Positions 36,878 through 64,000 of a stretch of DNA of 64,000 nucleotides are shown here, piece after piece. The position numbers and the translations under genes were made by a program. The stretch is from Giardia intestinalis (taxonomy: Eukaryota), in the NCBI GenBank assembly GCA_000002435.2, contig CM018793.1, one strand, 5' to 3'. Numbering within the stretch: the stretch's first letter is position 1; the number at the start of each line of letters is the position of its first letter. Below the pieces are notes generated by a model, which did not search any database, was not told the DNA's origin, and was given only the letters and a program-made list of their open reading frames with translations.

Positions 36878-36914
36878 GGCCAAAAATTAACTTGCAGACT
36901 TTTTGATTTCGGGA

Positions 36915-36921
36915 ATTTACT
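36915..36921 (-). terminator. Polyadenylation signal AGTAAAT, 3-9 nt after the stop of beta-tubulin copy 1.
   Basis: Minus strand reads TGAGCGAGTAAATTCCCG. Confidence 0.5.
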
Positions 36922-36924
36922 CGC

Positions 36925-38268
36925 TCAAGCGTACTCGTCGCCGAAGTCCTCCTCCTCCTCGAACTCCTCGCCCTCGTCGACGCCGGCCTCCTGGTACTGC
37001 TGGTACTCGGAGACGAGGTCGTTCATGTTCGACTCGGCCTCTGTGAACTCCATCTCGTCCATCCCCTCGCCCGTGTACCAGTGGAGGAAGGCCTTGCGGC
37101 GGAACATCGCCGTGAACTGCTCGCCGACGCGCTTGAAGAGCTCCTGGATGCACGTGGAGTTTCCGATGAAGGTCGCGGCCATCTTGAGCCCGCGCGGCGG
37201 GATGTCGCAGACGCTGACCTTCATGTTGTTCGGGATCCACTCGACGAAGTACGAGGAGTTCTTGTTCTGGATGTTGAGCATCTGCTCGTCGACCTCCTTC
37301 GTGGACATGCGCCCGCGGAACATGGCGGCGGCGGTCAGGTAGCGGCCGTGGCGCGGGTCGGACGCGGCCATCATGTTCTTGTTGTCGAACATCTGGGAGA
37401 CGAGCTCGGGGACCGTGAGGGCGCGGTAGATCTGGGAGCCGCGGCTCGTCAGGGGCGCGAAGCCGACGAGGAAGAAGTGGAGGCGCGGGAACGGGATCAG
37501 GTTGACCGCGAGCTTGCGGAGGTCGGCGTTGAGCTGGCCGGGGAAGCGGAGGCAGCTCGTGCAGCCGGACATGACGAGCGAGACGAGGTGGTTGAGGTCT
37601 CCGTAGGTGGGGCACGTGAGCTTGAGCGTGCGGAAGCAGATGTCGTAGAGGGCCTCGTTGTCGATGCAGAAGACCTCGTCGGCGTGCTCGACGAGCTGGT
37701 GGACCGAGAGGGTCGCGTTGTACGGCTCAACGACCGTGTCCGAGACCTTCGGGGACGGGACGACGGAGAACGTGCACATCATGCGGTCGGGGTACTCCTC
37801 GCGGATCTTCGCGATGAGGAGCGTGCCCATCCCGGCGCCCGTGCCGCCCCCCAGGGAGTGGCAGATCTGGAAGCCCTGGAGGCAGTCGCACGCCTCGGAC
37901 TCCTTGCGGACGACGTCGAGGACGGCGTCGACGAGCTCGGCGCCCTCCGTGTAGTGGCCCTTCGCCCAGTTGTTCCCGGCGCCGGACTGGCCGAAGACGA
38001 AGTTGTCGGGGCGGAAGATCTGCCCGAAGGGGCCTGCGCGGACAGAGTCCATCGTGCCCGGCTCGAGGTCCACGAGGATGGCGCGGGGGACGTACCTGCC
38101 GCCCGCCGCCTCGTTGAAGTAGACGTTGATCCTCTCGATCTGGAGCTCCGAGTCCCCGCGGTACTCGCCGCTCGGGTCGACGCCGTGCTCGTCGGAGATG
38201 ACCTCCCAGAACTTCGCGCCGATCTGGTTGCCGCACTGGCCTGCCTGGATGTGGACGATCTCACGCAT
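36925..38268 (-). CDS. Beta-tubulin (copy 1 of 3).
   Basis: 447 aa [23 protein letters not shown]...[12 protein letters not shown]...EEDFGDEYA, canonical beta-tubulin throughout. The track's longer start (38289) is TTG; the real ATG is at 38268 after AATTTAAAA. High GC and strong codon bias. Confidence 0.95.
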
Positions 38269-38608
38269 TTTTAAATTTTGGCAGTCCAAAAAATTCCCAA
38301 GGAATATTAAATTGAATTCTAATATGCTTCGTAATTTTCAATCTTCAGTGTAGTGTATTCGACAACAAACTAAAGGCCCGCAACACACTGCATGCCAAAT
38401 TTCAGCGACCATTATTTGACCATCGTACTTGCATGCCTGGGTCATCGCACTACTTAATGGTCTTCAACTTGTATTCTGCCACCCGTCCAATAGATTGAGA
38501 TAGGTCTTAGCTTAAGTCTAGAACTACTCATAAGGGCGGCCCACTTCAGGATCCCTGCTTTGTCTACCTAGCCCTAATCACAAGTCCAGAGAAGCATACT
38601 CAGTCACA

Positions 38609-38615
38609 GTTTACT
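38609..38615 (-). terminator. Polyadenylation signal AGTAAAC overlapping the lysyl-tRNA synthetase stop codon.
   Basis: Minus strand reads ...GAG TAA ACT..., so stop and AGTAAAC are fused. Confidence 0.45.
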
Positions 38616-40341
38616 CGACAAGTCTCCCCATGAGCGGAAAAGCAATCACTTCTCGGATGGTGCTACTGTTAGTCAGCAGCATAACCAGGCGATCTATGCC
38701 TATCCCTATCCCACCTGTGGGAGGAAGACCGTAATCGAGACACTTACAGAAGTCCTCGTCATACTCCATTGCGTCCATATCCCCGGCAGCCTTGTCTCGT
38801 ATTTGAGCCTGGAAATTCTCCCTCTGAATAATGGGATTATTCAGCTCTGTATAGGCATTAGAGACCTCAAAGCAGCTGATGAAGACCTCGAAGCGTTCAG
38901 CAAGTTCTGGGATAGAACGATGTGGCTTGGCCAAGGGCGACATGAGGACAGGATGGTACATTAAGAATATTGGGTTCGGCGTGAGCGTTTCAAGGTAGCG
39001 CTCCACCAACTTGTCAAGCATCCGGGCAGTTGTCAGAGGAGGCTTGCATTCCAAATCCAGACGCTCCAGTAAGGAAACAAGGAACCCATTGCATTCTTCA
39101 CCATCCAAAGGCCGTGGAAACTTAATGCTCAGCAGCTGCTCAAGAGTCTCAATGATAGGAACACGCCTCCAGGGTCTACTGAAATCTATGTCGTAAGTCT
39201 CTCCCTTGTGCGAAACAAATGTGAGCTTGTAGTGCTTCTTCTCGTCTGGCAAGCGCACATGGTTGTAGGTGATATTGTACCACCTGACCAATCTCGAAAC
39301 AAGGCCCTCAATGAGGTCACACATATCTTCCAGATCATCATACGCGGAATATGCTTCCATCATGGTAAACTCTGGGGAGTGCGTCTGATCAGAACTCTCG
39401 TTGCGGAAGTTCTTGTTTATCTCAAAAACCCTATTAAGCCCTCCAACGACTAAGCGCTTGAGGAACAGCTCGGGAGCAATGCGCAAGTAGACATCATGGC
39501 CAAGGTCGTTGGACTTGCACACGAAGGGCTGGGCTGCTGCTCCGCCGTGGACCGTCTGCAGCATCGGAGTCTCCACTTCAAGGTAATTCCTCTGATCAAT
39601 CATAAAACGCCTGATAAAGTTAATTATGCCCGACCTTTGTACTATCTTCTGCCCAGTATTATTGATTATGAAGTCCAGGTACCTCTGTCTGAAGCGAGCA
39701 TTGATGTCTGTAAGAGCCGACGGGCTGTTCGGTATCATATGTAAGCACGGACTGAGAAGAACCAGTTGCACGGGGATTATAGACAGCTCCCCACTCTTGG
39801 TAGTCGTGGGATACCCCTTCACGCCCACGATGTCGCCTCTATGGAGAGTAGAGACAATAGTGTCCCAGTCGAATTCCAACTTGACACGAGAGTCCTCTTT
39901 CGGGACATGAGCAAAGATCTGGAGCCTGTCATTATCTCCGTGGATAGTGTAGAATACGAGTTTTGCGCCAGATGTCCGGATGCTATGGATCCTTCCGGCA
40001 ACAGAGACCTGCTCCTCAGCCATTTCTCCTAAACTGCACTTCCCCTCATAACGCCTGCGGAACTCAGCAAGGGTCATCTCGACGACGAACTTGTGAGGCC
40101 ACGGATTCAATCTCCCGGACTTTTGAAGTGCAAGAAGCTCATTCTTTCTGTTCTCAAAATACTTTGTGGGATCTATCTCCTCAGGTGCACCTTCCACTGG
40201 CTCTGATCCCGATCCCGCGGCCTTAGCGGGAGGCGCAGGGCCCTTGGTCTCTTTTTCGCGAAGCTTCTGTCGTCGCTTCAGCTCGTTCTTCGAGACATAC
40301 TCTCCTGTCACTTCATCAAGGTGGCGTTTCTGCGAATCCAT
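38611..40341 (-). CDS. Lysyl-tRNA synthetase (class II).
   Basis: OB-fold anticodon-binding N-domain. Class II motifs: YLRIAPELFLKRLVVGG, FRNESSDQTHSPEFTMME (motif 2), GGIGIGIDRLVMLL (motif 3). ATG at 40341. Confidence 0.9.
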   Translation of the reverse strand: MDSQKRHLDEVTGEYVSKNELKRRQKLREKETKGPAPPAKAAGSGSEPVEGAPEEIDPTKYFENRKNELLALQKSGRLNPWPHKFVVEMTLAEFRRRYEGKCSLGEMAEEQVSVAGRIHSIRTSGAKLVFYTIHGDNDRLQIFAHVPKEDSRVKLEFDWDTIVSTLHRGDIVGVKGYPTTTKSGELSIIPVQLVLLSPCLHMIPNSPSALTDINARFRQRYLDFIINNTGQKIVQRSGIINFIRRFMIDQRNYLEVETPMLQTVHGGAAAQPFVCKSNDLGHDVYLRIAPELFLKRLVVGGLNRVFEINKNFRNESSDQTHSPEFTMMEAYSAYDDLEDMCDLIEGLVSRLVRWYNITYNHVRLPDEKKHYKLTFVSHKGETYDIDFSRPWRRVPIIETLEQLLSIKFPRPLDGEECNGFLVSLLERLDLECKPPLTTARMLDKLVERYLETLTPNPIFLMYHPVLMSPLAKPHRSIPELAERFEVFISCFEVSNAYTELNNPIIQRENFQAQIRDKAAGDMDAMEYDEDFCKCLDYGLPPTGGIGIGIDRLVMLLTNSSTIREVIAFPLMGRLVE

Positions 40342-40528
40342 GGCCTTTCGGGTCTTTTATTATTTCAGTTCTATTTTAATTATTTTGGACCTTTGCAACC
40401 TTGCAATGATCTCCTGGAATCTTTGTTTACAACTTGTAAAGAGCAATCCCACAAGTGGAGTGACACAACCGTCATTGGCTCCATACTAGCGTACCGGAGC
40501 TAGAATTAGACTGGAGCACATTATCGTC

Positions 40529-43500: not shown

Positions 43501-44539
43501 GACAACTCTGTTCTTTCAGTAGATTCTGAAGCCGCTGTATTTCATACGTTGCAGTGTAGAGCTGAGACCGCAAGTTCGCTATCTCCTCCCCCTTCCGACC
43601 GATATCCCGCCTTGTCGGTGAGCTCGAATTGAAGATAGAGGCGCCACCCTGCTGAAGATTTGCATGCAGTTCTCCAGTTTGTATAGAACGTACATCAATA
43701 GATGTGTCCGATACAACAAGATCATTTTTCGAATCTAAGTCCCACGGAGTGTCAGTTCCTGGAGGACTGGCATATACGCTGTAAGGATACATACTGTCCA
43801 CTGTTGCATGCTGGTGGTCGTCTGAGCTGACGTTAGCGCTACAACAAGCTTCGTTGACCCTAGTGTCATCATACGAAACGTGGTCAATGGAAGTAGGCTC
43901 CCCTCCTTTAGATATGCTTCGTTCTAGTGCAGCTGCGCTACGACACTCTCTTATGACATCGTTGATAGAATCAGACCCGACGATTTCTTGAAGTAGACCG
44001 TTCAAGAAGTCTAGCATCTGCACATCCCCCTGGGTAGTCGCCATATCGATACAACTTACTAGTTCTTTTTTGGTTGGGGGGAAAGCTCGTACAAGTATGG
44101 TTGCACACTGTATATGCCCGCTTAGGGCGGCGTAAAAGAGAGCGGTATGTCCTTCAGAATCAGTGTCGTCACCAATATGATCAACCAAAACACGCAGCGC
44201 GTCATTGCTTCCAGTATCTGCTGCAACCATAAGAGCATTAACGCCCGTGTCAGTCGTGATTCCGCTCTCCAAAGGTGCAAGCAAACGACACAAATCCGTA
44301 TTATTTGAGCCCGCGGCTAACATCAGCGCGGTGTGTCCAGTTGGCGTCGTCATCTTGGACTCTACCTCTGCAAGAATATGGGCGGCAGCCAGGTTTCCAG
44401 CCCTAACAGCAACCATCAGTGCTGTCTCGCCCTTGCTGTCCAGAGCACGCTGAAAGTCGTTTAGGTTCATCTGTAAGACAACGCAGTCGTCTTCATTGGC
44501 AGCCTGAAACCATTGGCTCCTAGTAATCTCGGGCTCCAT
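40529..44539 (-). CDS. Large ankyrin-repeat / coiled-coil protein ('Protein 21.1'-like).
   Basis: N- and C-terminal ankyrin repeats (ETALMVAVRAGNLAAAHIL, HTALMLAAGSNNTDLCRLL; C-term ATALMLAAYLDRAQIAEKL, KTALMHAVEQKRTFCARIL, FTALMYAVVMGNNNLVNLL) flank long coiled coils. Track start 44584 is GTG; the first ATG is at 44539 (MEPEITRSQWF), preceded by an AT-rich tract. Confidence 0.7.
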   Translation of the reverse strand: MEPEITRSQWFQAANEDDCVVLQMNLNDFQRALDSKGETALMVAVRAGNLAAAHILAEVESKMTTPTGHTALMLAAGSNNTDLCRLLAPLESGITTDTGVNALMVAADTGSNDALRVLVDHIGDDTDSEGHTALFYAALSGHIQCATILVRAFPPTKKELVSCIDMATTQGDVQMLDFLNGLLQEIVGSDSINDVIRECRSAAALERSISKGGEPTSIDHVSYDDTRVNEACCSANVSSDDHQHATVDSMYPYSVYASPPGTDTPWDLDSKNDLVVSDTSIDVRSIQTGELHANLQQGGASIFNSSSPTRRDIGRKGEEIANLRSQLYTATYEIQRLQNLLKEQSCRSWENKFSNLDNSFTTPTTPDADIRRLQDKCSSLELQVSSLELRNKQLRMSLDDIEQGQSSKVLPDAAKNEGVTEELTVEQILEFLRNNKDSAEQVYNDLKRSMSVPEQSSTGRPQSIVPIDADTDGPCNNVDDVGSNCPDTSHSSSIEMVEMRSPTPGCTVVPGLEERLETENLSLQAEVEALTRQLATRDEQIKTLRQELYDLRQSQLKMSMTMGPSMESVRPQIASNKYDLSETNHEIEVDMTISNTSFSFPESHYGTKGESAGSNQMASEGREYVMSFDIGTDQDIRYREPPTAKLPPLPGTKSNEFTEINASVVQIKLNKVQLELQEALDDKQVILEQLREERDEKSQLVSELTVCRDTIDHMTSEIEELKDRLDESLAKESTLSNDILELRGRMTSSPRPGECGSPVSVLGFNDNNQQPSPKMDDIYDIIRNSNSYHELLIKLNFSPDEIDDILSHQKAYDRDDPADDDPNKNLVHEISTINLRTGAVSHLPADDELEKELTRLQNSNDDLEKKCMDLQSSNVVLSAEAGKLASEIIDLRELLKEQEKKYADILAEKAMLEARPAYAHRANHDSLYEIQPEQKEIEACTNVQTKGPQAPLSTQSTRPASLRGEGDSHVYASGGNLDDRATSYSGSITDELCKKISSRRGSSVRQEKSDQSGRRNPFDMRDYVPGDEEDSYLAALQDERDRRMTTQDLEPGSSMTSTTTSTASFCLNLIDGIYTNVTPLMRAVLNDKISEVDKNLMYVRKTRSDGATALMLAAYLDRAQIAEKLGPLEANIRGPENLTALEIALYKGNYATAAILRSLEGIDIGNGIKVTTRRHTDLMTAVTENNPLTVWCLIPLQGRVQDWSGKTALMHAVEQKRTFCARILATAETRIQDRNGFTALMYAVVMGNNNLVNLLVEDEAGFVGRWHERLPSKFTALILACYHGRLKAATILLPFEGGMKDSIGRGPKYYAQNCSPRVPPQVRASLIDLFSDYKYK

Positions 44540-50653: not shown

Positions 50654-53060
50654 ATAGTCAGAATATTTACAATTAATAGCGAATTGACAGCGGGCTCCTA
50701 GCTAGGCTTATTGCCTCTAAGACACCGAAATATATAATAGCATAGCTGTTAACTAGGTAACCGATTAAGATTCGGTTAATTGTAAATGCATATTTTGCCT
50801 CTATTAACGAGGAAGGCAACGACTATTGCTCCAGTATTCTTCAATAATCTGAGCAGTTTTGCAGGGCTTTCCCCATGCATTTTTAAAGAGGTTGGATTAT
50901 GATTATAGCAATCTGAAGAATACAAATTTTTAAGACTCACTGCATATTACCTTTAACTCGCTAAGCGATGCAGAAAAAGATGTCAGCTTGGCCTGCAGTA
51001 GTTCTCTGACCCTTCTGCCTCAGTGGCCTCTCTGATGAGCAACAGCCAACTGGAAAGTCGTCAATCGCTGGAACGCTCATACCACATAGTGGCCGCTCAA
51101 GAGGTGCAAGGGCTGCACACACCGCTGTGGACGGGATGTTCGGTCAGCGGCTCTCCGGTGCGTTGAGCTGGCCCTTAGTTGCCACTCTGTGGCCTCCGAT
51201 AGGGACGAGCCTTATGAAGAGGCTTGCTTGGAGAACTCCTGACATTGCGACGCCTATCCTGAGAAGACAATGCTAACTCGCATAAGGTACTTCCACTGCT
51301 CATTCCCGCTGATCCAGATAAACGCCTTGCATGCTTCAGATTGTCCTCTGTTGCCAGCAGAGCAGCCACCGCCCTGTGTGTCTCCTTCAGACACATGCCC
51401 ATCTATGACGGCGCTTCCTGTCTCTTCTCTGAAGAGGCACAACCGTCCCAATCCAGACACCTTGCTCTCAGCACACACCTCGTATCTATCAGAGGCCAGG
51501 TGTTCGTCGACCATATTCCATGAGCATCAGTACTGTGCCACTATGTTACTTCCTGTCCTGAGGGGCGTGCTCTGACCATCCCAGTGTCTCTATGATAGGA
51601 GAGCTGTGGATCCGGAGGTGGTTGTTGCTTTCTGGCCCTCTCTGCTGTCCAGTAGACTGCAAGAGCGCCCTTCGGAAGTCGGTCCCCTAACCTCCTGTTC
51701 TCTCGGGGAAGTGGTCCTTGGATAGCGCCACTCGGAAGACTCCCGAAGCCTCACTACACGAGCTGCTGCACCTGGGGACTCCTGGAGTATCCTTATAAAG
51801 TCGCCCAGTGACGCAAGTCCTACCCATTGTCAGCGGAGGTCTCGGCTCTCAAGGACATCTCAGGGACAGCACGTCAGCGCCACTTCCTGACAGGGGCATG
51901 CGGAAGATCTGCTTCCTCTTGTGGATCCATCATTGGCATCGAGAGCACTAAGCCTGCCATCTTCGCTGGAGGTGTCAGCAGACGGTACTCCGCATCCACC
52001 CACGGAAGGGCTGAATCGTGTGCTGTCGTCATAATATTCCATATTAATGCAGATAAACCTCCCGGTGGCACTTGGGGATTCCCGACACGGTGCGCTAATA
52101 TACTACTTGCTCGAGCTATTGCTCAGATCTGCGATCCCCGTGGTCTGGGCCAGGTGCCTTGAATGGCCTCCAGCCCTAGTAGGAGCACAGGTCGGTGCTC
52201 CTTGTTCCAAACAAGCATTCCATCTATTGTGCCCAGCCCTGAAAGACCCGCTCCTTTGCCGGTATCCGAGCGCTGTCTGCCCCCAGGGGGCATGCTGGCA
52301 TTCAACAGAGAGGCTTGCAGATACCACAGATCTCGGTGGTAAAGCGCCTGGGCCCCTGCCCTGGGCACGAGTAAGAAGCCCCAGCAGTACTTCGCTGCGG
52401 ACTATGACACGGTTCCTGTGTGGTGCCAGGCGATGCACAGCAGCCACGAGTGTGCAGTCCTCTGCGCCTGCCCACCGATGACGCAGCCGGGGCCTGTGGA
52501 GCAGCAGGGTCGAGACACACATATGGGAGGCGCCGACGGGCATTGGACCATTGGCCGTCAAATGGTGGGTATGACTTGAGAGGTGGCTCGCGGCAGGTAA
52601 TTTACTCGACCGCAGCAGACAGGATCGCCTTTGGCCTAAAACCGCCATGTGTCGGTAGATGCACCTGTGTCTTCCACCACTGTTCTGTGTGCCATTATTA
52701 TATTCTGGCGTCTCTAGATTTGGCAGAGGCATCTAACAAGGAATTCACAACTAGAGGCTGGCCCAACAGCCAGAGAGGCGTCTATTGGGCTGTACACCCA
52801 TGCACCGGATTGTCTTGAAGGGGTCGTTCCCTCTCTAATCACGTGCTCTGTCCCCGGTCCGTACCAGCGAAAGTCTTACTGAGACAATGCACTGGCAACG
52901 GACACAATAACCGGTGTTAGGGTAACTAACTGAGACACCCACTGCCCAGGATACTGACCAGACCACCAGGCAGCGATTGGCCGGAATAAGGGAGAGCCGC
53001 TCTCCTTGGCATACTCTACTATGTGCGTGCAAGAATGGATGGACCATAAAGTGAGGCCAC
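50654..53060. other. 2.4-kb block with no credible ORF: AT-rich for the first ~350 bp, then moderately GC-rich.
   Basis: Only short overlapping ORFs (209 aa or less) with no codon bias and no cysteine periodicity. Contrasts with 7-50 bp intergenic spacers elsewhere. Confidence 0.4.
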
Positions 53061-55484
53061 TCAATTCTTCTTTCGGAAGACGAAAAACCAAACCAGCACA
53101 GCCGCCACACCGCCGACGACAAGGACCACGCCGATGGCGATGCCAGAGATGGCACTAGACGAGAGGGCGGACTTTTTGGAGGTGTTGTCGTACTCCAGAC
53201 ATATGGGTGTGGCTGCGCCCTCTGGAACCACGCAGAGGCTGCACTTGGAGATCGCCTTGTGACACGCCTTGCACGTGTTTTCGGAGAAGTAGTACCCGGT
53301 CAGGCAGTCGAAGCATGCCTTCCCATGGGGGCAGGTGGCGCAGCCCTTGGAGCACGCCTTGCATGCCCCCTTCTCCAGGTAGAACCCGCTGTTACAGGCG
53401 TTGCAGACCCCACTACTACACATTGCACAGTTCGTCGGGCATGTAAGGAGCGTTCCGTTGTACGTTATCCCATACCCAGCCACGATGCTATCACACCAGC
53501 CGTTATTCTCCTTCGTACAGACAGTCTTCCCGGGGAGGAGTGTGGAGGTGTAGCACCCCCCGTTGAGGCTGAAGGAGTTTGAGCTGCAGAGAGCACATCT
53601 ACCGTCGGCGACATTCACGCACGCGGTACCAGCCGCCCGCGAGCTGGAGGAGGTGCACACCCCGTTGTTGGGGTACTCCGTGCTCTTGGCACAGCGCGAG
53701 CAGTAGCTGGTCCCGCTCACCGTGAGCCCGCACTCTGCACAGCTGCTGTCCTTCACGCACTGCGGGACGCACGATCCCTTGGCACCGTCGCTGTACTGCA
53801 GCCGCTTCCTGGCAGGGCAGGAGGTGCAGTCGCCGGATGCCGGTCCGCTGCACGTGGCGCACTCAGAGCTGCACGGCTTGCATCCTCCCGAGCCCTCGAC
53901 GTAGAACCCGTCCCTGCACGTCTTGCACTTGGATTCCGACTCGCAGACTACGCAGTTGCCGAGCGTGCACGCCACGCACCTCGAGACGCCGCCCACGGTG
54001 GCCTTGTAGTACCCGGCGGAGCCCAGGCAGTCCTTCACGCACAGACCGTGGGGATCGAGGCTGTTGCCATCGGTACACTTTGTGCACACGTCTCTGTCCT
54101 CGCACGTGTCGCAGTTGGGGTCCTTGCACTTGGTCGCCACGCACTGACTGCTGGAGAGTGTGTAGCCATACTTGCACTTCTTACAGCTCGACTCGTCACA
54201 CTCAGCGCAGTTCTCCACCGCGCACCCGACACACTTCCCGTCCTTCAGATAGGACCCGTCATCGCACGCGCAGCTGTGGACCGAGGATGAGGACTCCTGC
54301 ACGCCCTTCTGCCCCTTGGGACAGCTGGCCAGGCAGCTCCTCTTATCCAGGCTCAGGTAGAGGTCGCGGCACTCCAGACACTGAAGACCACTGTCCTTCA
54401 TCTCACACCTTTGGCATCCCTCTATTCCCCCGTTGGCTGAGTCCCCGCAGCGCCAGCATCTGCTATTCTTGGTGAACACCTCTTTGGTTGAACTGTTACA
54501 TGTGGTGCAAACGTTGCCCTGCATTGCTTGACAAATATAAGATTCTATTTGATTCGGAGCATTATTAAATAAGTAGCATCCACCATAAAACAAGAAGTAT
54601 TGCCCGCTGCTATCATTCTTACAAGATGTGCATTTTCCTGTTCTAGGATCTTTCGTACAAACATTACCAAATTCGCTGATTGACTTACAGAGGCCATTCT
54701 GAGGCGCTTCTGATGAATTGGCGCATTGTGTGCACAACGATCGTCCCTGTATATCTATAGTATTTCTTGGTAAACAGATACTGTTACCAATTATACTATC
54801 TGCGGTATAACACCCAAACTGACTCCAGACGTAACCCCTAGGGCAAACATAACAATAGCCAAAAACAGCTGTGCTAGAAGCAGGCTTGCATCGAAAATCA
54901 AAAGGGCACATAACTCGTTCTGAGCATTCGCTACAGCTGGGTATAGTGTTCCCTGGCAACCTATGTTGGTTACAGTACTGACACCTATATACACCACTAC
55001 TCCCGCCAAAGCCTACTATATCTCCGCAGTAGATACAGCGTTCAGGAGAGGTCGCATTAGGGTTGGTAAAAGTTATTGGGGTATAATACCCACCGCCCTT
55101 TCCGCACTCTTGACAAATCCCATTTTCTGCACGATCGCAGATACTTGCTTTCCATCTGCCAGACAATTCATAGCAGCCACCGTAAAATAAGAAGTAACCA
55201 TTGTTACATCCTGTGCACCATCCACCTTTCGGCGATTTAACACAACCGGCTTTATTAACTTTTTCGTCTGTAGTAGCAACACATGTGCCATTGATGGGAA
55301 CATAATCCTGGCTACACTCTGTGCAAAAAAAAGTAGTTAAGTCCACTAGGCATCTATCCTGAAGACACTGTGGGATCCTGCCTTCACAAGAATACCCAAA
55401 GCCATTGTAGTATACAAACGTTTCCTCAGAGAAAGACCCTGCCAGAAAACAAGTCAGAATCACGATCAGCGAAGCCAAAATCAT
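53061..55484 (-). CDS. High-cysteine membrane protein (VSP-like ectodomain with non-VSP tail).
   Basis: Signal peptide MILASLIVILTCFLAGSFS. About 11 percent Cys with many CxxC and GGCY motifs. One TM segment (GIAIGVVLVVGGVAAVLVWFFVF) and a short cytoplasmic tail RKKN, not the VSP-specific CRGKA. Track start 55526 is GTG; the first ATG is at 55484. Confidence 0.8.
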   Translation of the reverse strand: MILASLIVILTCFLAGSFSEETFVYYNGFGYSCEGRIPQCLQDRCLVDLTTFFCTECSQDYVPINGTCVATTDEKVNKAGCVKSPKGGWCTGCNNGYFLFYGGCYELSGRWKASICDRAENGICQECGKGGGYYTPITFTNPNATSPERCIYCGDIVGFGGSSGVYRCQYCNQHRLPGNTIPSCSECSERVMCPFDFRCKPASSTAVFGYCYVCPRGYVWSQFGCYTADSIIGNSICLPRNTIDIQGRSLCTQCANSSEAPQNGLCKSISEFGNVCTKDPRTGKCTSCKNDSSGQYFLFYGGCYLFNNAPNQIESYICQAMQGNVCTTCNSSTKEVFTKNSRCWRCGDSANGGIEGCQRCEMKDSGLQCLECRDLYLSLDKRSCLASCPKGQKGVQESSSSVHSCACDDGSYLKDGKCVGCAVENCAECDESSCKKCKYGYTLSSSQCVATKCKDPNCDTCEDRDVCTKCTDGNSLDPHGLCVKDCLGSAGYYKATVGGVSRCVACTLGNCVVCESESKCKTCRDGFYVEGSGGCKPCSSECATCSGPASGDCTSCPARKRLQYSDGAKGSCVPQCVKDSSCAECGLTVSGTSYCSRCAKSTEYPNNGVCTSSSSRAAGTACVNVADGRCALCSSNSFSLNGGCYTSTLLPGKTVCTKENNGWCDSIVAGYGITYNGTLLTCPTNCAMCSSGVCNACNSGFYLEKGACKACSKGCATCPHGKACFDCLTGYYFSENTCKACHKAISKCSLCVVPEGAATPICLEYDNTSKKSALSSSAISGIAIGVVLVVGGVAAVLVWFFVFRKKN

Positions 55485-57279
55485 GGGGCTATTATTCTTT
55501 ATTGGATACCTATGAAAGTTACACACTAATCCGAGTCAGCCACTGAAAGCCTTGGCTTAGAATTACAACTGTCAGAATAATACCCCTTGTACTTCTTACA
55601 GACAGACTACAGCCGGCAGACCCATGGAAGGGCTCACTCTACTTACACTAGTCATCGACTCACACGGCGACCTGAGCAGCCTGTAATCTGGCTCTGCAAT
55701 GAAACAGTTAGGCGATCTGTTTGTCTCCATTCTCAAGCAGACTTGCCTAATTCAAAATTACTAACATACGCTTCAAAGTTTCGCAGGACTTACAGTACAG
55801 AAAACTCATTGGGAACATGTTCCGAGCAAACACGTTCGATACACAACCACCTCACAAAGGACTCTCTGCTATCAAGAAGATCCTCTCGAGGTCTATGAGT
55901 GGGGTAACTGTAAGCAAGCTCCTTGAAGAATGGCTGTTTTCAGGCGCCTGTCCATCCCCTTACCCCGATGTTCCAGGAGCCAGCATCAGTCATATCTTCG
56001 TTGAGCAAGGGCACTGTGGAGGGAACCCTGCAGGGCCTAACGAGCGTTCGGAGGTGCAGCAGAACAACGACGAGACACGGTGTGCCATCGCATAGGCACT
56101 AAGATCTCGCTGACCTGTGCACTGAAGGATGCAGGCCATCCGAGTCCTTCTCTGTATGCAATCGTAGCCTGCTGCTTTCGTCGGTGTTTGTCCTCCACGA
56201 GGGCCCTTATTACCCGAAGCCCTAGAGCCCTGAGGTCGTACTGCGGCAAGCATCTGCTCTACAGGTGCTGACGTACAGGCCACTTTACTTTAGTACTGGC
56301 AGTCGGAGAATACTTCGACGTGGTTTGTTCAGAGACGCCAGGAGTACAGCCAAGTACCTTGCCGACAAACACAGCATCCAGCCCCAGAAGAACATCTAGT
56401 CCTCCTGAGGCACGATGCGGCCATGTTTGTCTTCTGCTGGTACCGGGCCCAAACGGACAGCCTGCTTACCGAAGAAGAACGTATGCAGTTAGACACCTCT
56501 GAAGGCCTGGCCTGCCCTAGCAACCCAATTCACTGCGGAGTGCTCTTTGCTGCCCCCGCCCCCGGTGCACGGAGATTTAATCAAGTAAATCGCTATTTGG
56601 ACATTGAAACATTCCCTTCCTTATTATCAACAGCCGCCCTGCAGCCGCTACCGGAAGGACCCGCGTGTATGACCTTTGCTCTAACGCTAAGCAAGGGTGC
56701 TTTAATGTGTGGCAACGTAGAACTCGTTTCGACAAAGCATGCGGCCTTATCCACTCTCTCTATGTGCCTATTGGATAAGGCTCAATCGAGTACACACAAG
56801 CCTTTTGTTTATCAAAAAATACTACCTCTGGCCGAGCCTACCTCTCATAACCAAAACGAAGGCACTTACTGACGTGCAACACGATGGGAAAACGGACCCA
56901 CACTGTATCTTGAGGTAGCAGTCAATGATTAGGCAGGTGGTGCTTGCATTAGCGCATCAAAGGGAAAATTATGGACCACTGCCTCTGAACTTAATGTCAA
57001 GTTTGTACAGCCTAGCCCCATATGGGACGAAGCTTATGCGCATACATGAGTGGATTTGACTGCATAATCACATTGAGTTGAGATACAGACGACACAGGGT
57101 ATTACGGCCCAGTCACATGGAGTAATCGAGCTTCCTGTGGAGAACACCCTGAAAGGCTAGACCATCTGGAAAAGATACTTGACCTCACAACATTTGTAGA
57201 TCCATCACATATAGAGATCCGCTCATAGCCAGTGTGGTCATCGCATGGGATCCGTCGATGATGCGCTTATTATTTAAGT
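55485..57279. other. 1.8-kb block without convincing genes between the high-cysteine protein's 5' end and the VSP fragment.
   Basis: Only short ORFs, for example 56423..56872 (149 aa, true ATG, no features). Confidence 0.35.
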
Positions 57280-58086
57280 CTATAGCTTTCCTCTACAAAG
57301 GAGCCACCAGCGGCGGAAGCCGGCCAAAGCAGCAACAACGAGAAAGCCGGCCGCTGCCCCCTGCGATCGCTGCCCTCTTCCTGACCAGCTCCTTGGCTGG
57401 AACGCAGACGCCCTTCTGAGGACTGCGTCGATCTCACACATGCACACCCCCTGGTTCGATGAGGCCCTGGCGCCGCACCCTTCTGCACACGTCCGCTGGT
57501 CTACTTGGACGTTGTGGCCCGAAGTGACACACGAGAGGCACCTACCCGACTCATCGCAGGCAGCACACAACGGCATGCCAGAGGAACACTCGACTGCGGA
57601 CACACACCCGGATCTATCCAGCGCCGGCAGGAAGCCCCGCTCGCACCAGCACCTCCGCACGCCGCCGGACACCTCTCCCACCACCTTGTCCCCGGTGCAC
57701 TCCTCCAGGCACGACTGCCCGTCCAGGCTCACGAAAAGCTCCTCCGCGCACTCTGTGCAGAAGGATGTATGCCCGCAGGTCTTGCACCCCGGAGTGGCGC
57801 AGGGCAGGCACGCGTCTCCGTATGCGTAGTACCCGTCCACACAGGCGCCGGGGTCGACGCAGCTCCCGGTGGCGGCACCCGAGGCCTTCTTCAGGAGCTT
57901 GTCAGAGGGGCACCTGGTGCAGCGGCCGGGGCCAGGGGCAGTGCACTCCAGGCACCCAGGGGCACAGGGCTGCAGGCTCCCATCGGCCGATATCCAGTAC
58001 CCCTTCTTGGTCGTTGTGCACTTCCCGCCTGACTGCTTATCACAGATAGTACTTCCCGGATAGTACTTCGTTGTGTAGCAGCCCGT
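57280..58086 (-). pseudogene. Variant-specific surface protein (VSP) 3' fragment: C-terminal ~268 codons without a start codon or signal peptide. Tail is ...WWLLCRGKL.
   Basis: Minus-strand frame is open from the stop at 58087-58089 down to TAG at 57280-57282. It reads ...GKCTTTKKGYWISADGSLQPCAPGCLECTAPGPGRCTRCPSDKLLKKASGAATGSCVDPGACVDGYYAYGDACLPCATPGCKTC...TM...FRRWWLLCRGKL*. There is no in-frame ATG until deep inside. The track 'M' at 57840 is GTG. Confidence 0.6.
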
Positions 58087-58211
58087 TCATCAGGAAGGCC
58101 GCTTCAGAGCAGGCAGGGCAACCTAGGAGTGCACACCCGGCCCGGCGCTTGTCACAAACGACCACTCACAGCGGCAAACGGAGGTGCAGGCCTGCTTAGA
58201 ATGCGCGGAGA

Positions 58212-58218
58212 GTTTACT
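58212..58218 (-). terminator. Polyadenylation signal AGTAAAC after beta-tubulin copy 2.
   Basis: Minus strand reads TGAGTGAGTAAACTCTCCG. Confidence 0.5.
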
Positions 58219-58221
58219 CAC

Positions 58222-59565
58222 TCAGGCGTACTCGTCGCCGAAGTCCTCCTCCTCCTCGAACTCCTCGCCCTCGTCGACGCCGGCCTCCTGGTACTGCTGG
58301 TACTCGGAGACGAGGTCGTTCATGTTCGACTCGGCCTCTGTGAACTCCATCTCGTCCATCCCCTCGCCCGTGTACCAGTGGAGGAAGGCCTTGCGGCGGA
58401 ACATCGCCGTGAACTGCTCGCCGACGCGCTTGAAGAGCTCCTGGATGCACGTGGAGTTTCCGATGAAGGTCGCGGCCATCTTGAGCCCGCGCGGCGGGAT
58501 GTCGCAGACGCTGACCTTCATGTTGTTCGGGATCCACTCGACGAAGTACGAGGAGTTCTTGTTCTGGATGTTGAGCATCTGCTCGTCGACCTCCTTCGTG
58601 GACATGCGCCCGCGGAACATGGCGGCGGCGGTCAGGTAGCGGCCGTGGCGCGGGTCGGACGCGGCCATCATGTTCTTGTTGTCGAACATCTGGGAGACGA
58701 GCTCGGGGACCGTGAGGGCGCGGTAGATCTGGGAGCCGCGGCTCGTCAGGGGCGCGAAGCCGACGAGGAAGAAGTGGAGGCGCGGGAACGGGATCAGGTT
58801 GACCGCGAGCTTGCGGAGGTCGGCGTTGAGCTGGCCGGGGAAGCGGAGGCAGCTCGTGCAGCCGGACATGACGAGCGAGACGAGGTGGTTGAGGTCTCCG
58901 TAGGTGGGGCACGTGAGCTTGAGCGTGCGGAAGCAGATGTCGTAGAGGGCCTCGTTGTCGATGCAGAAGACCTCGTCGGCGTGCTCGACGAGCTGGTGGA
59001 CCGAGAGGGTCGCGTTGTACGGCTCAACGACCGTGTCCGAGACCTTCGGGGACGGGACGACGGAGAACGTGCACATCATGCGGTCGGGGTACTCCTCGCG
59101 GATCTTCGCGATGAGGAGCGTGCCCATCCCGGCGCCCGTGCCGCCCCCCAGGGAGTGGCAGATCTGGAAGCCCTGGAGGCAGTCGCACGCCTCGGACTCC
59201 TTGCGGACGACGTCGAGGACGGCGTCGACGAGCTCGGCGCCCTCCGTGTAGTGGCCCTTCGCCCAGTTGTTCCCGGCGCCGGACTGGCCGAAGACGAAGT
59301 TGTCGGGGCGGAAGATCTGCCCGAAGGGGCCTGCGCGGACAGAGTCCATCGTGCCCGGCTCGAGGTCCACGAGGATGGCGCGGGGGACGTACCTGCCGCC
59401 CGCCGCCTCGTTGAAGTAGACGTTGATCCTCTCGATCTGGAGCTCCGAGTCCCCGCGGTACTCGCCGCTCGGGTCGACGCCGTGCTCGTCGGAGATGACC
59501 TCCCAGAACTTCGCGCCGATCTGGTTGCCGCACTGGCCTGCCTGGATGTGGACAATCTCACGCAT
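58222..59565 (-). CDS. Beta-tubulin (copy 2 of 3).
   Basis: 447 aa, identical in protein sequence to copy 1. ATG at 59565 is preceded by GATTTAAAA, with an in-frame TAA at -6. Confidence 0.95.
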
Positions 59566-59744
59566 TTTTAAATCGGCGCCGGCGGAATCTGGATTTGGCG
59601 GCGGCCAAGTTCAGATTGCGTAACAATAAATATGCAATAATGACATGAATGCAACCACTGTTATATACCATAGGTGGTCCTGTGGGAATCCTTACTTAAT
59701 GGTACAAGGCGATAAGTCAACAAAGTGTTGGAGCACCTACGGAA

Positions 59745-61319
59745 ATGTCCAATAAATACAATATTTACACTACAAATGCCGTCTTAAAAATGTCCCTGCC
59801 TGAGTTGAACGAGCTCGAGCCCAAGGATCTCTGGCAAAACTTCTTCTTTATGTGCGGGATACCACATGGGTCGGGAAATGTCACGGCTATCGTCCAGGCC
59901 CTCAAGGAGCGTGCCGAAGCAGCCGGTCTCAAGGCGACCATTGAAGCCTCCTCCGGGAATCTTCTCATTGTGAAGGAGGCAGACCCAGGATGCGAGAATG
60001 CCCCAACAGTCTGCCTACAAGGTCATTGTGACATGGTTTGCAGCAAGCGTGCCACGACAGAGCACGACTTCCTCAAAGATCCGATTCGCCCACGTCTTGA
60101 GATGACGGACGGCAAGCTCTGTATGTATGCAAACGGGACGACTCTCGGGGCAGATAACGGGATCGGCGTCTCTGCTGCCCTCGCGATTGCTTGTGACAAG
60201 ACTCTGAAGACGGGCCGTATCGAGGTCCTCGTCACTATCGACGAGGAGACTACAATGCACGGCGTGAAGCACATGGGGACGGACCTTCTCGAAGCCAAGT
60301 ACTTGCTGAATCTGGACTCTGAGGACCTCGGGGTCGTAACTATTGGGTCTGCAGGAGGGTTCAATGGCAACTTTTACTTCAATCCCGCAACCTTCAAGAC
60401 CATAGATTGTGACTCTTGCAATTGCCTGAGTATTGAAGTCAAGGGATTCTCGGGTGGACACTCTGGCGTCGACATCCACCATTACAGAGGCAATGCTATA
60501 AAGATTATGGCGCGTATCCTGGACATTGCCTGTAGCCTTGAGTATCAAGGAAAGATTTGCTCCATCAAGGGCGGAACAGCCCACAATGCAATTCCTATGG
60601 ACTGTTCTGCCTGTCTGTGCTTCTGCGGTGTCAGTCAGGCCAAGATCGCCAGCTTCATTTCTGAAGCCAAAAAGCTTGCGGAGGATCTTAAGACTGAGTA
60701 CAAGACAACCGACAGTGACGCCACGATAGTGATTCATGAGCAGAGCCAGACCTGCCATGGCAAGTGCACTCATGCTCTCTATGTTTCGTCGCGCAGCCTT
60801 GTTGACTTTCTGCTTACTTGCCCCTCTCAGGTTATTCGCGTGTCTCAGGACGTTGAAGGCCTTACGGAGAGCTCGATGAATCTGGGCAAAGTGAGGTTCA
60901 GCGCAGAGAACCTCCCTGGGAGTTACATTGTCACTCTGTCTCGTTCGTCGGTCAACTCCTACCTTGATGCCAACGACAAGATGTTGGCTGGGCTCGCCCG
61001 CATGGCCAGGATCTTCAAGTATAGCGGCAAGCTGGATCCGTACGGCGGCTGGACCCCGAATCCTCACTCCAAGCTGCTAGAGATCTGCAAGAGGCACTAC
61101 GCAGACGCCCTCGGCGGGAAAGAGCCGATCGTGGAGGCCATCCACGCCGGCCTTGAGTGTGGCGAGATTATCTCTAGATATCCCAGCATGGAGGCTATTT
61201 CCATCGGGCCGACTATTAGGAATCCTCATAGTGACAGCGAACTCTGTGAAGTGGAGACTGTTCTGCCGTTCTACAATGTCGTCAAGGGCATTGTCTCGGA
61301 GATTGCCACCCTCCAGTAA
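59745..61319 (+). CDS. pepD: Aminoacyl-histidine (Xaa-His) dipeptidase PepD, peptidase family M20C.
   Basis: Matches bacterial PepD blocks: LQGHCDMV (vs LQAHLDMV), HDFLKDPIRP, NGTTLGADNGIGVSAALAIA, IHAGLECG, SIGPTIRNPHS. ATG at 59745. Confidence 0.85.
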   Translation: MSNKYNIYTTNAVLKMSLPELNELEPKDLWQNFFFMCGIPHGSGNVTAIVQALKERAEAAGLKATIEASSGNLLIVKEADPGCENAPTVCLQGHCDMVCSKRATTEHDFLKDPIRPRLEMTDGKLCMYANGTTLGADNGIGVSAALAIACDKTLKTGRIEVLVTIDEETTMHGVKHMGTDLLEAKYLLNLDSEDLGVVTIGSAGGFNGNFYFNPATFKTIDCDSCNCLSIEVKGFSGGHSGVDIHHYRGNAIKIMARILDIACSLEYQGKICSIKGGTAHNAIPMDCSACLCFCGVSQAKIASFISEAKKLAEDLKTEYKTTDSDATIVIHEQSQTCHGKCTHALYVSSRSLVDFLLTCPSQVIRVSQDVEGLTESSMNLGKVRFSAENLPGSYIVTLSRSSVNSYLDANDKMLAGLARMARIFKYSGKLDPYGGWTPNPHSKLLEICKRHYADALGGKEPIVEAIHAGLECGEIISRYPSMEAISIGPTIRNPHSDSELCEVETVLPFYNVVKGIVSEIATLQ

Positions 61320-61326
61320 ATTTTGA

Positions 61327-62790
61327 ATGCCGTTTATTCCGTGGGTGCTGTGTCGCAGACTCTCAGGCTTGCTCAGAGAGCAGATTCGCAGGTCCCTTGA
61401 GGCAGTGGGCGATTATATAATTCGCGGAAGAGAAGGAGGAACTAGACTCCAGTTTATTGTTATTCCATCCGGGGAAGCTGTGGCGTCATCACATCTTCTG
61501 CTAGACGAGATTATGGATCTTATTCAGGTTTCTTCTCCAGACACGCACATAGTGAGCTCTCTAGGGTCTGACATAATACAAAACGTTCCTTGGGATAGGA
61601 CGGACATTGCTTTGATCGTCGATGGAAACGACCTCTTTCCGCTACGGGGAAATGACGATGGTGCGCTTCGAGTCATGCGGTGTTTCCTATCCCATATAAG
61701 GGCCAACGAGGCTTCGCGCATCCTTCTTATCATATTAACAACCGCACTTCCCACTGTCTTCATTTACATGTTCAAGAAAACTATGGCCCGGGCCGTCGGC
61801 CAGATAACGCTTTTAGTGCCCCAGAGCATACAATGCTGTCCACTACATATTGGCATGGACCTCTGCGATAGTATCCTTGGAGAGCTGCTCGTAGAAGGAG
61901 TTCTCCCAAGTAAAGACAGTGTCAACTATATGAATAGTCTCGACGGGTCAGAACTTATAATGCTGCCTGAGATGATCTACCGAGCCCTTACACAGACTGG
62001 AGCAGTGCAGACTAAGGTAGCTAATCATCTGTGCAAGATTCTAAACACGTGTCTTCTAATATACCAAGTCATGATACAGCACATCCCCTTCCAAGGAGAG
62101 CTGAGTACATTTTGCTTGTTTCTAATTAACATGTTGAAGGGCCGCCTTGACCAGTGGCCCCACTCTCGGGCAATAACCTTGGCAACAGAGCGGGAAATGG
62201 ATACAGCCCAAATGGCTATTCTATCAAAGTGTATATGTGACATTTTAGAGAAAGGGTCGGTGCAATCAGACCCTAGGGACACGCCCCGCTGGGTCTCAGA
62301 GTACAACAGTATGCTCAAAAAAGAGGTAGCGTTGCTAAGCGACGACCTCCTAACTATAGAAAGTTGGCCTGCAAAACGCCGCACGCAGCACGCGCACACG
62401 ATTTTTAACACAGTATACGGAGGGATAATCGGACACCTGTTCCCCCTGTCTCTTTGGGATGCTGTCTATACAACGGAGAACAGTTCCTTGTTCCTCGTAG
62501 GACAGCATAACAACCCAAATATCCAACTTGACGGCTTGATTGGCTCATACAATGACACCATCTGTGAAGCAACCTGGAGCATTCTCAAGACAGTGAGGGC
62601 AGGGTCTATTGCTGTCAACACCCTCTTCCAACAAGCAGCAGAAAACTACTTCAAAACCCATTGGATACGGTCAGATGATCATACAACGCTGATCAGTGAC
62701 TTCATCACCTTCCTAATGGCACTGCAGCAGGCACAGATAGTGACAATCACCGCTCAGAGCGCCAGACTGATGGTTGAAATGATTATATGA
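61327..62790 (+). CDS. Hypothetical protein.
   Basis: ATG at 61327, only 7 bp after the dipeptidase TAA. 487 aa, no recognisable domain. Confidence 0.55.
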   Translation: MPFIPWVLCRRLSGLLREQIRRSLEAVGDYIIRGREGGTRLQFIVIPSGEAVASSHLLLDEIMDLIQVSSPDTHIVSSLGSDIIQNVPWDRTDIALIVDGNDLFPLRGNDDGALRVMRCFLSHIRANEASRILLIILTTALPTVFIYMFKKTMARAVGQITLLVPQSIQCCPLHIGMDLCDSILGELLVEGVLPSKDSVNYMNSLDGSELIMLPEMIYRALTQTGAVQTKVANHLCKILNTCLLIYQVMIQHIPFQGELSTFCLFLINMLKGRLDQWPHSRAITLATEREMDTAQMAILSKCICDILEKGSVQSDPRDTPRWVSEYNSMLKKEVALLSDDLLTIESWPAKRRTQHAHTIFNTVYGGIIGHLFPLSLWDAVYTTENSSLFLVGQHNNPNIQLDGLIGSYNDTICEATWSILKTVRAGSIAVNTLFQQAAENYFKTHWIRSDDHTTLISDFITFLMALQQAQIVTITAQSARLMVEMII

Positions 62791-62804
62791 TTGCCATTTA
62801 AATT

Positions 62805-64000
62805 GCAATCTGAACTTGGCCGCCGCCAAATCCAGATTCCGCCGGCGCCGATTTAAAAATGCGTGAGATTGTCCACATCCAGGCAGGCCAGTGCGGCAAC
62901 CAGATCGGCGCGAAGTTCTGGGAGGTCATCTCCGACGAGCACGGCGTCGACCCGAGCGGCGAGTACCGCGGGGACTCGGAGCTCCAGATCGAGAGGATCA
63001 ACGTCTACTTCAACGAGGCGGCGGGCGGCAGGTACGTCCCCCGCGCCATCCTCGTGGACCTCGAGCCGGGCACGATGGACTCTGTCCGCGCAGGCCCCTT
63101 CGGGCAGATCTTCCGCCCCGACAACTTCGTCTTCGGCCAGTCCGGCGCCGGGAACAACTGGGCGAAGGGCCACTACACGGAGGGCGCCGAGCTCGTCGAC
63201 GCCGTCCTCGACGTCGTCCGCAAGGAGTCCGAGGCGTGCGACTGCCTCCAGGGCTTCCAGATCTGCCACTCCCTGGGGGGCGGCACGGGCGCCGGGATGG
63301 GCACGCTCCTCATCGCGAAGATCCGCGAGGAGTACCCCGACCGCATGATGTGCACGTTCTCCGTCGTCCCGTCCCCGAAGGTCTCGGACACGGTCGTTGA
63401 GCCGTACAACGCGACCCTCTCGGTCCACCAGCTCGTCGAGCACGCCGACGAGGTCTTCTGCATCGACAACGAGGCCCTCTACGACATCTGCTTCCGCACG
63501 CTCAAGCTCACGTGCCCCACCTACGGAGACCTCAACCACCTCGTCTCGCTCGTCATGTCCGGCTGCACGAGCTGCCTCCGCTTCCCCGGCCAGCTCAACG
63601 CCGACCTCCGCAAGCTCGCGGTCAACCTGATCCCGTTCCCGCGCCTCCACTTCTTCCTCGTCGGCTTCGCGCCCCTGACGAGCCGCGGCTCCCAGATCTA
63701 CCGCGCCCTCACGGTCCCCGAGCTCGTCTCCCAGATGTTCGACAACAAGAACATGATGGCCGCGTCCGACCCGCGCCACGGCCGCTACCTGACCGCCGCC
63801 GCCATGTTCCGCGGGCGCATGTCCACGAAGGAGGTCGACGAGCAGATGCTCAACATCCAGAACAAGAACTCCTCGTACTTCGTCGAGTGGATCCCGAACA
63901 ACATGAAGGTCAGCGTCTGCGACATCCCGCCGCGCGGGCTCAAGATGGCCGCGACCTTCATCGGAAACTCCACGTGCATCCAGGAGCTCTTCAAGCGCGT
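62805..64000. repeat. Inverted-repeat arm B (54-bp flank plus beta-tubulin copy 3; continues past the window).
   Basis: Reverse complement of 58222..59619. The antisense spurious ORFs mirror those of copy 2 (for example 62798..63001 vs 59423..59623). Confidence 0.85.
62859..64000 (+). CDS. Beta-tubulin (copy 3 of 3), 3'-truncated by the window end.
   Basis: ATG at 62859 after ATTTAAAA. The first ~380 codons are identical to copy 2 wherever checked (including ATT at codon 4). Runs off the window. Confidence 0.95.

Follow-up and report, generated by a model that had tools for sequence, protein, structure and literature searches.

How can three genes that lie at separate places in a genome remain almost letter for letter the same? 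The question is raised by a 64,000-nucleotide (nt) stretch of Giardia intestinalis DNA (assemblage A, WB-like; hereafter the window), one contiguous sequence that holds all three copies of the beta-tubulin gene, called here W1, W2 and W3. The explanation that we favor, with a probability of roughly 0.8, is that the copies occupy three old loci and are kept together by ectopic gene conversion at the DNA level, acting along with an absolute constraint on the protein and strong selection on its codons.

Three genes encode one protein

The three copies were located as follows.

36925-38268, minus strand: beta-tubulin W1, a coding sequence (CDS) of 447 amino acids (aa) between lysyl-tRNA synthetase (LysRS, upstream) and dynein heavy chain (DHC, downstream); from translation, comparison, Pfam and composition
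58222-59565, minus strand: beta-tubulin W2, CDS of 447 aa; from translation, repeat finder and composition
62859-64000, plus strand: beta-tubulin W3, first 380 codons and two bases, cut by the window end; equal to W2 over 1142 nt

Translation of W1, W2 and W3 yields one and the same protein (447 aa in W1 and W2). The Pfam families PF00091 (Tubulin) and PF03953 (Tubulin_C) are both found on it, as precomputed hits to the identical protein, and it shares 85-92% of its residues with beta-tubulins across eukaryotes. The source records name the identical protein “Tubulin beta chain [Giardia]” (KAE8305766 and KAE8305773; UniRef A8BEI6). It is on record at two WB loci and at two loci of isolate P15, and is also encoded in P15 and in many sequencing runs. 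The CDSs of W1 and W2 differ at two positions, 12 (ATC/ATT, codon 4) and 1341 (GCT/GCC, last codon), both of them synonymous, and W2 and W3 do not differ at all over the 1142 nt that can be compared. No intron is present in any copy.

The composition of these genes stands apart from that of the sequence around them. Beta-tubulin has a GC content of 0.66, a GC content at third codon positions (GC3) of 0.98 and an effective number of codons (ENC) of 25.2, and only 9 of its 447 codons end in A or T, whereas the 22 other genes of the window range from 0.41 to 0.64 in GC3 and from 50 to 61 in ENC. A preliminary description of this DNA had listed the three copies with identical proteins, had seen only synonymous changes between W1 and W2 (at codon 4 and the last codon), and had called the coding regions far more GC-rich and codon-biased than their neighbors. 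Its coordinates and proteins proved exact on retranslation, the silent differences number exactly two, and the comparison with the 22 genes bears out the compositional contrast.

Long antisense ORFs (open reading frames) of 308-480 aa cover every beta-tubulin copy (37081-38274, plus strand; 58129-59571, plus strand; 62853-63779, minus strand). They arise because stop codons are rare on the complementary strand of a gene with a GC3 of 0.98, and nothing indicates that these antisense ORFs are genes. The sole match of a tandem-repeat search, an 18-nt repeat of 2.2 copies that encodes part of the acidic tail within the CDS, is irrelevant here.

The loci are shared among assemblages

Flanks are named here by what they lead to. 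Upstream of the gene, up1 is the LysRS side, up2 the side of an M20 peptidase gene and up3 the side of a 487-aa ORF; downstream, dn1 is dynein, dn2 is the fragment resembling a variant-specific surface protein (VSP) in the window, and dn3 lies past the window. The lineages compared are A (the WB window, and isolate DH, which is AII), E (P15) and B (isolate GS and B-type contigs). The neighbors of W1 are the following.

22244-36877, minus strand: DHC, 4877 aa; from the ORF list, Pfam on the P15 ortholog and the junction sequence
38611-40341, minus strand: LysRS, upstream neighbor of W1 and locus anchor across assemblages; from Pfam

The LysRS of the window is identical to that of WB clone C6 (XP_001707384), and the LysRS orthologs of GS, P15 and DH are each followed by beta-tubulin. 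This up1 context was found together with beta-tubulin in GS of assemblage B (contig L011, ACGJ01002381, which ends 273 nt into the gene), in P15 of assemblage E (contig L017, ACVC01000214, which ends 409 nt into the gene), in DH of AII (contig L038, AHGT01000052) and in a B-type metagenome contig. Both the up2 and the up3 contexts were found in P15 and B-type contigs (L003, L024, L021, L033 and L037). The junction of beta-tubulin and DHC, dn1, is present in A and in E (P15); for the B lineage, a homolog search with the dynein N-terminus recovered no such junction. Because all three upstream contexts occur in A, B and E, the triplication of beta-tubulin is older than the split of these assemblages. 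Furthermore, the neighboring genes have a synonymous divergence (dS) of 0.45-0.59 in the A-E comparison and of 1.4-2.2, which is saturated, in the A-B comparison, and such high values in flanking genes indicate that the loci have long been separate.

Two observations concern more distant relatives. A beta-tubulin homolog search for G. muris as an outgroup gave no Giardia-specific match, and G. muris was absent, among the entries listed. In the diplomonad Spironucleus salmonicida, a single contig of 623 kb encodes three beta-tubulin proteins that differ slightly, and clustered beta-tubulin triplets may be older than Giardia.

Paralogs are more alike than orthologs

Had evolution at these loci been independent, paralogs should be no closer to each other than orthologs are. 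The reverse was observed. Within a genome the copies differ at 0-2 sites in WB and at none between the two full copies of P15 (P15a and P15b), whereas orthologs differ at 14 sites between A and E, 17-26 between A and B and 24-33 between E and B, all of them silent and one of them in the stop codon. Paralogs are thus 7-12 times more alike than orthologs. Not a single variable site groups the copies by locus; lineage-specific changes are common to the paralogs, being present in every copy of the lineage that was examined. The up1 copy of P15 likewise carries E-specific alleles over its first 377 nt. Since the loci are old and yet paralogs are closer than orthologs, the pattern is one of concerted evolution, the classical signature of gene conversion and not of recent duplication. 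The comparison across assemblages had been proposed in the preliminary description, which read the locus as gene conversion, and its outcome agrees with that reading: there is no nonsynonymous divergence among the copies, and the flanks of W1 are unrelated to those of the others.

A recent gene-sized duplication, with no conversion involved, could also leave near-identical copies in unrelated flanks, and a published survey of Giardia duplicates, which explicitly set gene conversion aside, took low-dS pairs for recent duplications (PMC2829556). Such an origin is extremely improbable for beta-tubulin, given the orthologous flanks of all three loci in A, B and E, the dS of 0.45-2.2 in neighboring genes and the greater closeness of paralogs than of orthologs. 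A recent segmental duplication fares no better, with the W1 flanks unrelated and the flank homology between W2 and W3 (described below) old, at about 89%.

The silent sites themselves evolve slowly. Between assemblages the dS of beta-tubulin is 0.049 (A-E) and 0.060 (A-B), 10-30 times below that of the neighbors, and codon selection therefore probably contributes to the identity of the paralogs. The low rate could stem from translational selection or from GC-biased conversion. One may go further and suppose that selection for optimal codons ending in G or C keeps the old paralogs identical with no exchange whatsoever, as the GC3 of 0.98, the ENC of 25 and the reduced dS between assemblages would allow. 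However, substitutions fixed in a lineage are present in all copies examined. In lineage E most of these fixed changes replace C by T or G by A and lead away from the preferred codon, and independent, parallel fixation at identical sites in two or three copies is not credible. In addition, a noncoding 54-nt promoter block (see below) is patterned in the same way. Selection acting alone is hence very unlikely to account for the pattern.

Evidence from independent assemblies

Perfect repeats are prone to misassembly, and the true copies might differ while the reference has been homogenized by collapsed reads during assembly or polishing. The assemblies of P15, DH and GS do mishandle the repeat, and the copy-specific differences occur only near unique flanks, as an artefact would also predict. 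Contig ACVC01000215 of P15 (L001, with the order beta-tubulin, 487-aa ORF, M20, beta-tubulin, DHC) joins up2 to dn1 and skips a 20-kb interval along with one copy. A real 20-kb deletion in P15 was considered and rejected in favor of a collapsed path, as the adjacent contig ACVC01000214 ends in LysRS and beta-tubulin. DH contig AHGT01000052 joins up1 to dn3, the flank proper to the W3 position. In B-type contigs every upstream context leads into several different downstream contexts, and no B architecture can be derived from them. We treated these joins as paths through a collapsed repeat and not as rearrangements, although real inversions or deletions between copies may be among them.

Nevertheless, identity of the copies as a mere product of assembly is highly implausible. 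More than 10 independent de Bruijn contigs (Logan, ENA, NCBI) cross all 1344 nt free of bubbles, with 0-3 differences from the window within lineage A, which argues against a polishing artefact, and the record of the identical protein at two loci each in WB and P15 points the same way. A study of 1989 reportedly described three clone-derived genes that were indistinguishable by restriction mapping and by sequence. Our conclusion rests on the contiguous copies of WB, on the P15 and GS alleles that lie within read length of unique flanks, and on the bubble-free contigs.

W2 and W3 share more than a transcript

The second and third copies lie in opposite orientation, and the sequence they have in common extends beyond the gene. 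The features around them are as follows.

59566-59619, minus strand: GC-rich promoter block of 54 nt that precedes W2 and has an identical counterpart before W3; from breakpoints and repeat finder
62805-62858, plus strand: 54-nt promoter block upstream of W3, beginning 15 nt after the stop of the 487-aa ORF; from breakpoints, repeat finder and lineage alignment
57280-58221, minus strand: downstream flank of W2, with the 3' untranslated region (UTR) and a start-less VSP-like fragment, the outer part of a probable inverted-duplication arm; from frame translation, Pfam, tblastn and DH/P15 alignment
59745-62790, plus strand: unique spacer between the W2 and W3 arms, with the M20 peptidase (59745-61319) and the 487-aa ORF (61327-62790); from Pfam

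In the repeat finder the arms 58424-59619 and 62805-64000 are inverted, 100% complementary and 3185 nt apart. The same gene pair of M20 and the 487-aa ORF also sits between two beta-tubulin copies in P15. Directly downstream of W2, and in the frame of its CDS, runs a VSP-like ORF (57280-58090, minus strand) with CXXC motifs and a transmembrane segment. Its C-terminus reads CRGKL before the stop, not the canonical CRGKA; it has a weak C-terminal match to PF03302 and a tblastn match to the neighboring cysteine-rich protein. This ORF is apparently a truncated VSP that was included in the inverted duplication of W2 and W3.

Evidence on the downstream side of W3 comes from other sequences, and the contigs reached through the 487-aa ORF for WB sequence past position 64000 are all shorter than 5 kb. 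Over about 950 nt, the dn3 flank of DH matches the W2 flank at 88.8%, and the dn3 flank of P15 aligns to it at 79%; in both isolates dn3 leads to a CFAP43-like gene. WB-like contigs that run from the 487-aa ORF through beta-tubulin continue in W2-flank sequence, identical for at least about 135 nt. Among isolates, the flank after the up3 copy is of W2 type for at least 135 nt in AI-isolate contigs and is an 80% version of it in AII. In assemblage B, two different downstream contexts have exactly 57 nt in common. W2 and W3 very probably also share their downstream flank. Because the dn3 flanks of DH and P15 and the WB-like contigs all match the W2 flank, W2 and W3 are very probably the arms of an old inverted segmental duplication that took in the gene together with its promoter block and the VSP-like fragment. 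The outer ~950 nt of the arm have diverged by about 10%, while the gene and the promoter block are identical.

The promoter block is informative about what is exchanged. It measures 54-58 nt. In any one lineage up2 and up3 carry the same version, but the version differs from lineage to lineage: A has CTGAAC, E has CCAAAC, and B shows numerous changes and indels. Since this non-transcribed block co-evolves in each lineage, conversion between W2 and W3 would act on DNA and would not be limited to the transcript; for this pair the homogenized unit includes DNA outside the mRNA and is larger than the transcript. Read-through from the 487-aa ORF could cover up3, but the M20 gene is divergent from up2.

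The homology of W1 is of mRNA length

The situation at W1 is different, and three features define it.

36911-38276, minus strand: the whole unit that W1 has in common with W2 and W3, namely an AT-rich initiator (8 nt), the CDS and a 3'UTR of 14 nt with AGTAAA; from breakpoint mapping and repeat finder, with the same limits in E and B
36907-36924, minus strand: W1 3'UTR, GCGAGTAAATTCCCG(AAA), with AGTAAA at 36916-36921 and the poly(A) site 15-18 nt past the stop; from contigs L009 and L004
38269-38330, minus strand: AT-rich promoter-proximal region of W1 type (up1), found conserved across A, E and B and showing no relation to the promoter block of W2 and W3; from upstream alignment by context and lineage, GS contig L011 and P15 contig L017

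Upstream of its ATG, W1 matches W2 and W3 only in ATTTAAAA (8 nt). Downstream of the stop, 11 of 14 nt match between W1 and W2 (G.GAGTAAA.TC.C), and nothing farther out can be aligned; the repeat finder pairs 36913-37212 with 58210-58509 and 37127-38276 with 62851-64000. These limits are constant in every lineage that can be read, at -8 in A and E and -9 in B on the 5' side and at +14 on the 3' side. The three mismatches between W1 and W2 in the 14-nt 3'UTR are found in WB, and in P15 the dn1 and dn3 copies share this segment wholly. Generic Giardia signals were considered as a source of the short UTR matches and rejected, as 0 of the 22 other window genes have ATTTAAAA directly before ATG or a stop followed by G.GAGTAAA. 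The short matches are specific to the beta-tubulin family.

The 3' limit can be set against the transcript itself. Two contigs, L009 (Logan SRR3596228) and L004 (Logan SRR10662865), contain the W1-specific 3'UTR GCGAGTAAATTCCCG, which leads into a long run of poly(A) of non-genomic origin in L009 and into poly(A) and an Illumina adapter in L004; both contigs are evidently RNA-derived. Because these contigs show the W1-specific 3'UTR running into poly(A), W1 is transcribed and is polyadenylated 15-18 nt after the stop, exactly at the end of homology. L004 and L009 also hold the M20 and 487-aa genes upstream of beta-tubulin, which reflects either neighboring transcripts merged in RNA assembly or read-through transcription. 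Only 47 nt (36878-36924) separate the W1 stop from the ATG of dynein heavy chain, and A and E are identical throughout them (100%). The poly(A) site lies about 30 nt upstream of the dynein start codon, and the dynein promoter must therefore overlap the 3' end of W1.

The preliminary description had placed the ends of W1 homology about 8 bp upstream and about 12 bp downstream, and they were mapped at 8 nt and about 14 nt. It further held that the copies are homogenized exactly from initiator to poly(A) signal, in tracts bounded by the transcription unit and not through shared ancestry of a larger segment. When W1 is set against the other two copies this stands, with the 3' edge falling at the poly(A) site. 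It has to be given up for W2 and W3, which share the 54-nt promoter block upstream and a flank of about 950 nt at about 89%. Even at W1, the transcription unit and the end of homology and selection are indistinguishable as bounds, because the UTRs of Giardia are here only about 8 and 15 nt long.

Limits of this kind invite an explanation through RNA, the chief alternative to conversion from DNA. W1 could be a retrocopy of beta-tubulin mRNA, inserted between LysRS and dynein with its own initiator retained, or it could be kept in step by a homogenizing donor made as cDNA from the abundant transcript. The W1 unit runs from -8/-9 to +14, the RNA-derived contigs place poly(A) addition at +15 to +18, and the genomic bases right after the poly(A) site are A-rich (AAATCAAAAAG). 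Non-LTR (long terminal repeat) retrotransposons are present in Giardia, and leaders in this organism measure a few nt, a length with which the 5' limit of -8/-9 is compatible. cDNA donors have also been proposed for the CDS-bounded conversion of highly expressed ribosomal protein (RP) genes of fungi (PMC6993855).

Several observations nevertheless make an RNA route unlikely. No target-site duplication is present at W1. A candidate was formed by AATTTTT(T)GG, of which the window holds only two, one in each flank, together with CTGC(C)AA; it was rejected, as the matches are not colinear but stand in opposed orders, and the first is a conserved up1 promoter element (A, E and B). The candidate remnant of poly(A) is only an 11-nt A-rich stretch within the 47-nt region of the DHC promoter, conserved between A and E, for which function offers an explanation. 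DNA-templated conversion is very probably at work in this family, in the promoter block of W2 and W3: homogenization is confined to transcribed sequence when W1 is compared with W2 and W3, but not when W2 is compared with W3, where the promoter block co-evolves. The usual test through introns is impossible in genes that have none, and with UTRs of about 8 and 15 nt a unit bounded by the mRNA equals the CDS plus its signals. If the RNA route were true, it would mean transcript-templated homogenization in the near-intronless Giardia, which might extend to alpha-tubulin and histones.

Probable exchange among the three loci

Our preferred explanation remains conversion at the DNA level. From the pattern we infer a recombination mechanism in which the copies would be kept near-identical by repeated, non-reciprocal homologous recombination (non-crossover repair) between DNA copies. 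Purifying selection on the protein would be absolute, and selection on synonymous codons, unusually strong, would act on top of conversion. Between W2 and W3, conversion would homogenize the non-transcribed promoter block as well. W1 lies 20 kb from W2 in direct orientation and has its own conserved promoter, and its exchanges would be confined to the block from -8 to about +14. Conversion tracts at W1 would have to start and end inside this block, so that its edges would be fixed and copy-specific differences would be left at the extreme ends (edge effect). Both CDS differences between W1 and W2 do lie at most 12 nt from the CDS ends (chance about 3×10−4). The limits of the W1 unit would then simply be the limits of retained homology, as tracts cannot enter unrelated flanks. 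Because the UTRs of about 8 and 15 nt are themselves functional, as initiator and poly(A) signal, the preserved block would inevitably coincide with the transcript. Were W1 and W2 to cross over, the essential genes LysRS and UTP25 would be lost, and we likewise infer that selection acts against crossovers, such that only non-crossover events would be expected to persist.

Several points weigh against this explanation. No conversion event or tract mosaic is seen directly, and the mechanism is drawn from pattern; the dn3 copy of P15, which carries the dn1-type 14-nt 3'UTR, is an indirect hint of conversion, as is the flank after the up3 copy, of W2 type in AI isolates and an 80% version in AII. 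Slow silent sites explain part of the similarity among copies, and informative sites are few (14-25). That the W1 unit ends at both ends of the mRNA is a coincidence under DNA-level conversion, explained only by homology and selection ending there. A perfect repeat of 1.3 kb is too long for short-read assemblies to connect the upstream context of a copy with its downstream one. Interior alleles outside WB are unphased, and the identity of P15a and P15b could partly reflect consensus building. Lastly, the sequence that follows W3 in this same genome lies beyond the window end.

Neighboring sequences

Between the cysteine-rich gene and the VSP-like fragment downstream of W2 lies a stretch of about 1.7 kb (55527-57280) in which none of the frames contains a sizeable ORF. 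This is unusual for such a compact genome, and the stretch may consist of decayed gene remnants. The cysteine-rich gene itself (53061-55484, minus strand) encodes an 807-aa membrane protein with a strong Pfam VSP match. It is more like a high-cysteine membrane protein, because its C-terminus reads ...VFRKKN in place of CRGKA. Beside it lies a GC-rich ORF of 209 aa (52103-52732) that belongs to no family, and the stretch 51000-54000 is GC-rich as well. A contig from a more distant relative (L013; Logan SRR31929897) encodes a LysRS that is 63% identical and keeps the large upstream neighbor of LysRS. Downstream of LysRS this contig has ribosomal protein P0 (RPLP0), not beta-tubulin and dynein.

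Comparison with known systems

The presence of three beta-tubulin genes in Giardia is traced to Kirk-Mason et al. 1989 (as cited in PMC13315228), and the WB annotation lists them as GL50803_101291, GL50803_136020 and GL50803_136021. A single primer pair has been used for all three copies, which were treated as indistinguishable in quantitative PCR (PMC5607323). In the searchable literature, no analysis of their concerted evolution, of the limits of homology or of the inverted duplication of W2 and W3 was found; the 1989 paper, which lies outside it, may describe divergent 5' flanks. The three genes are thus long known, and what is presented here is a clean new example of a well-described process, not a new kind of system.

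A parallel is offered by the fungal RP genes (PMC6993855; Evangelisti and Conant 2010, cited there). These are also highly expressed, dosage-sensitive, dispersed paralogs whose CDSs are homogenized while promoters and flanks have diverged, and which cluster by species and not by locus. In fungi, however, unconverted introns are the evidence for cDNA donors, and Giardia beta-tubulin has no introns; moreover, W2 and W3 homogenize non-transcribed promoter DNA, which points to a DNA donor.

Tubulin is also multicopy and uniform within the genome in the arrays of Trypanosoma and Leishmania (cited in PMC13315228). Those arrays are head-to-tail and subject to unequal crossing-over of whole units, intergenic DNA included, whereas the Giardia copies are dispersed, in both orientations and in unrelated flanks.

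The geometry of W2 and W3 resembles yet another system. In the palindromes of Y chromosomes, the arms of inverted repeats are homogenized by intrachromosomal gene conversion. W2 and W3 are likewise inverted arms, 3.2 kb apart, identical within a lineage and diverging between lineages. Unlike in the palindromes, only the gene and the 54-nt promoter block are identical in Giardia, and the outer ~950 nt stand at about 89%.

Implications

The repeat has consequences for genome assemblies. It breaks or mis-joins the published assemblies of P15, GS and DH at this locus: the P15 assembly hides 20 kb and one copy, and contigs of GS and P15 end inside the gene. For typing and dating, the copies are not independent and their silent sites are slow, and a low dS between paralogs should not be taken as a sign of recent duplication.

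The three genes also matter for drug resistance. The mutation E198K in beta-tubulin is a known resistance mutation (PMC8267433). Three interconverting loci in a tetraploid cell amount to about 12 gene copies, among which a benzimidazole-resistance allele such as E198K shows as a partial, “heterozygous” signal. Conversion could spread such an allele or erase it, which matters for the reading of amplicon data.

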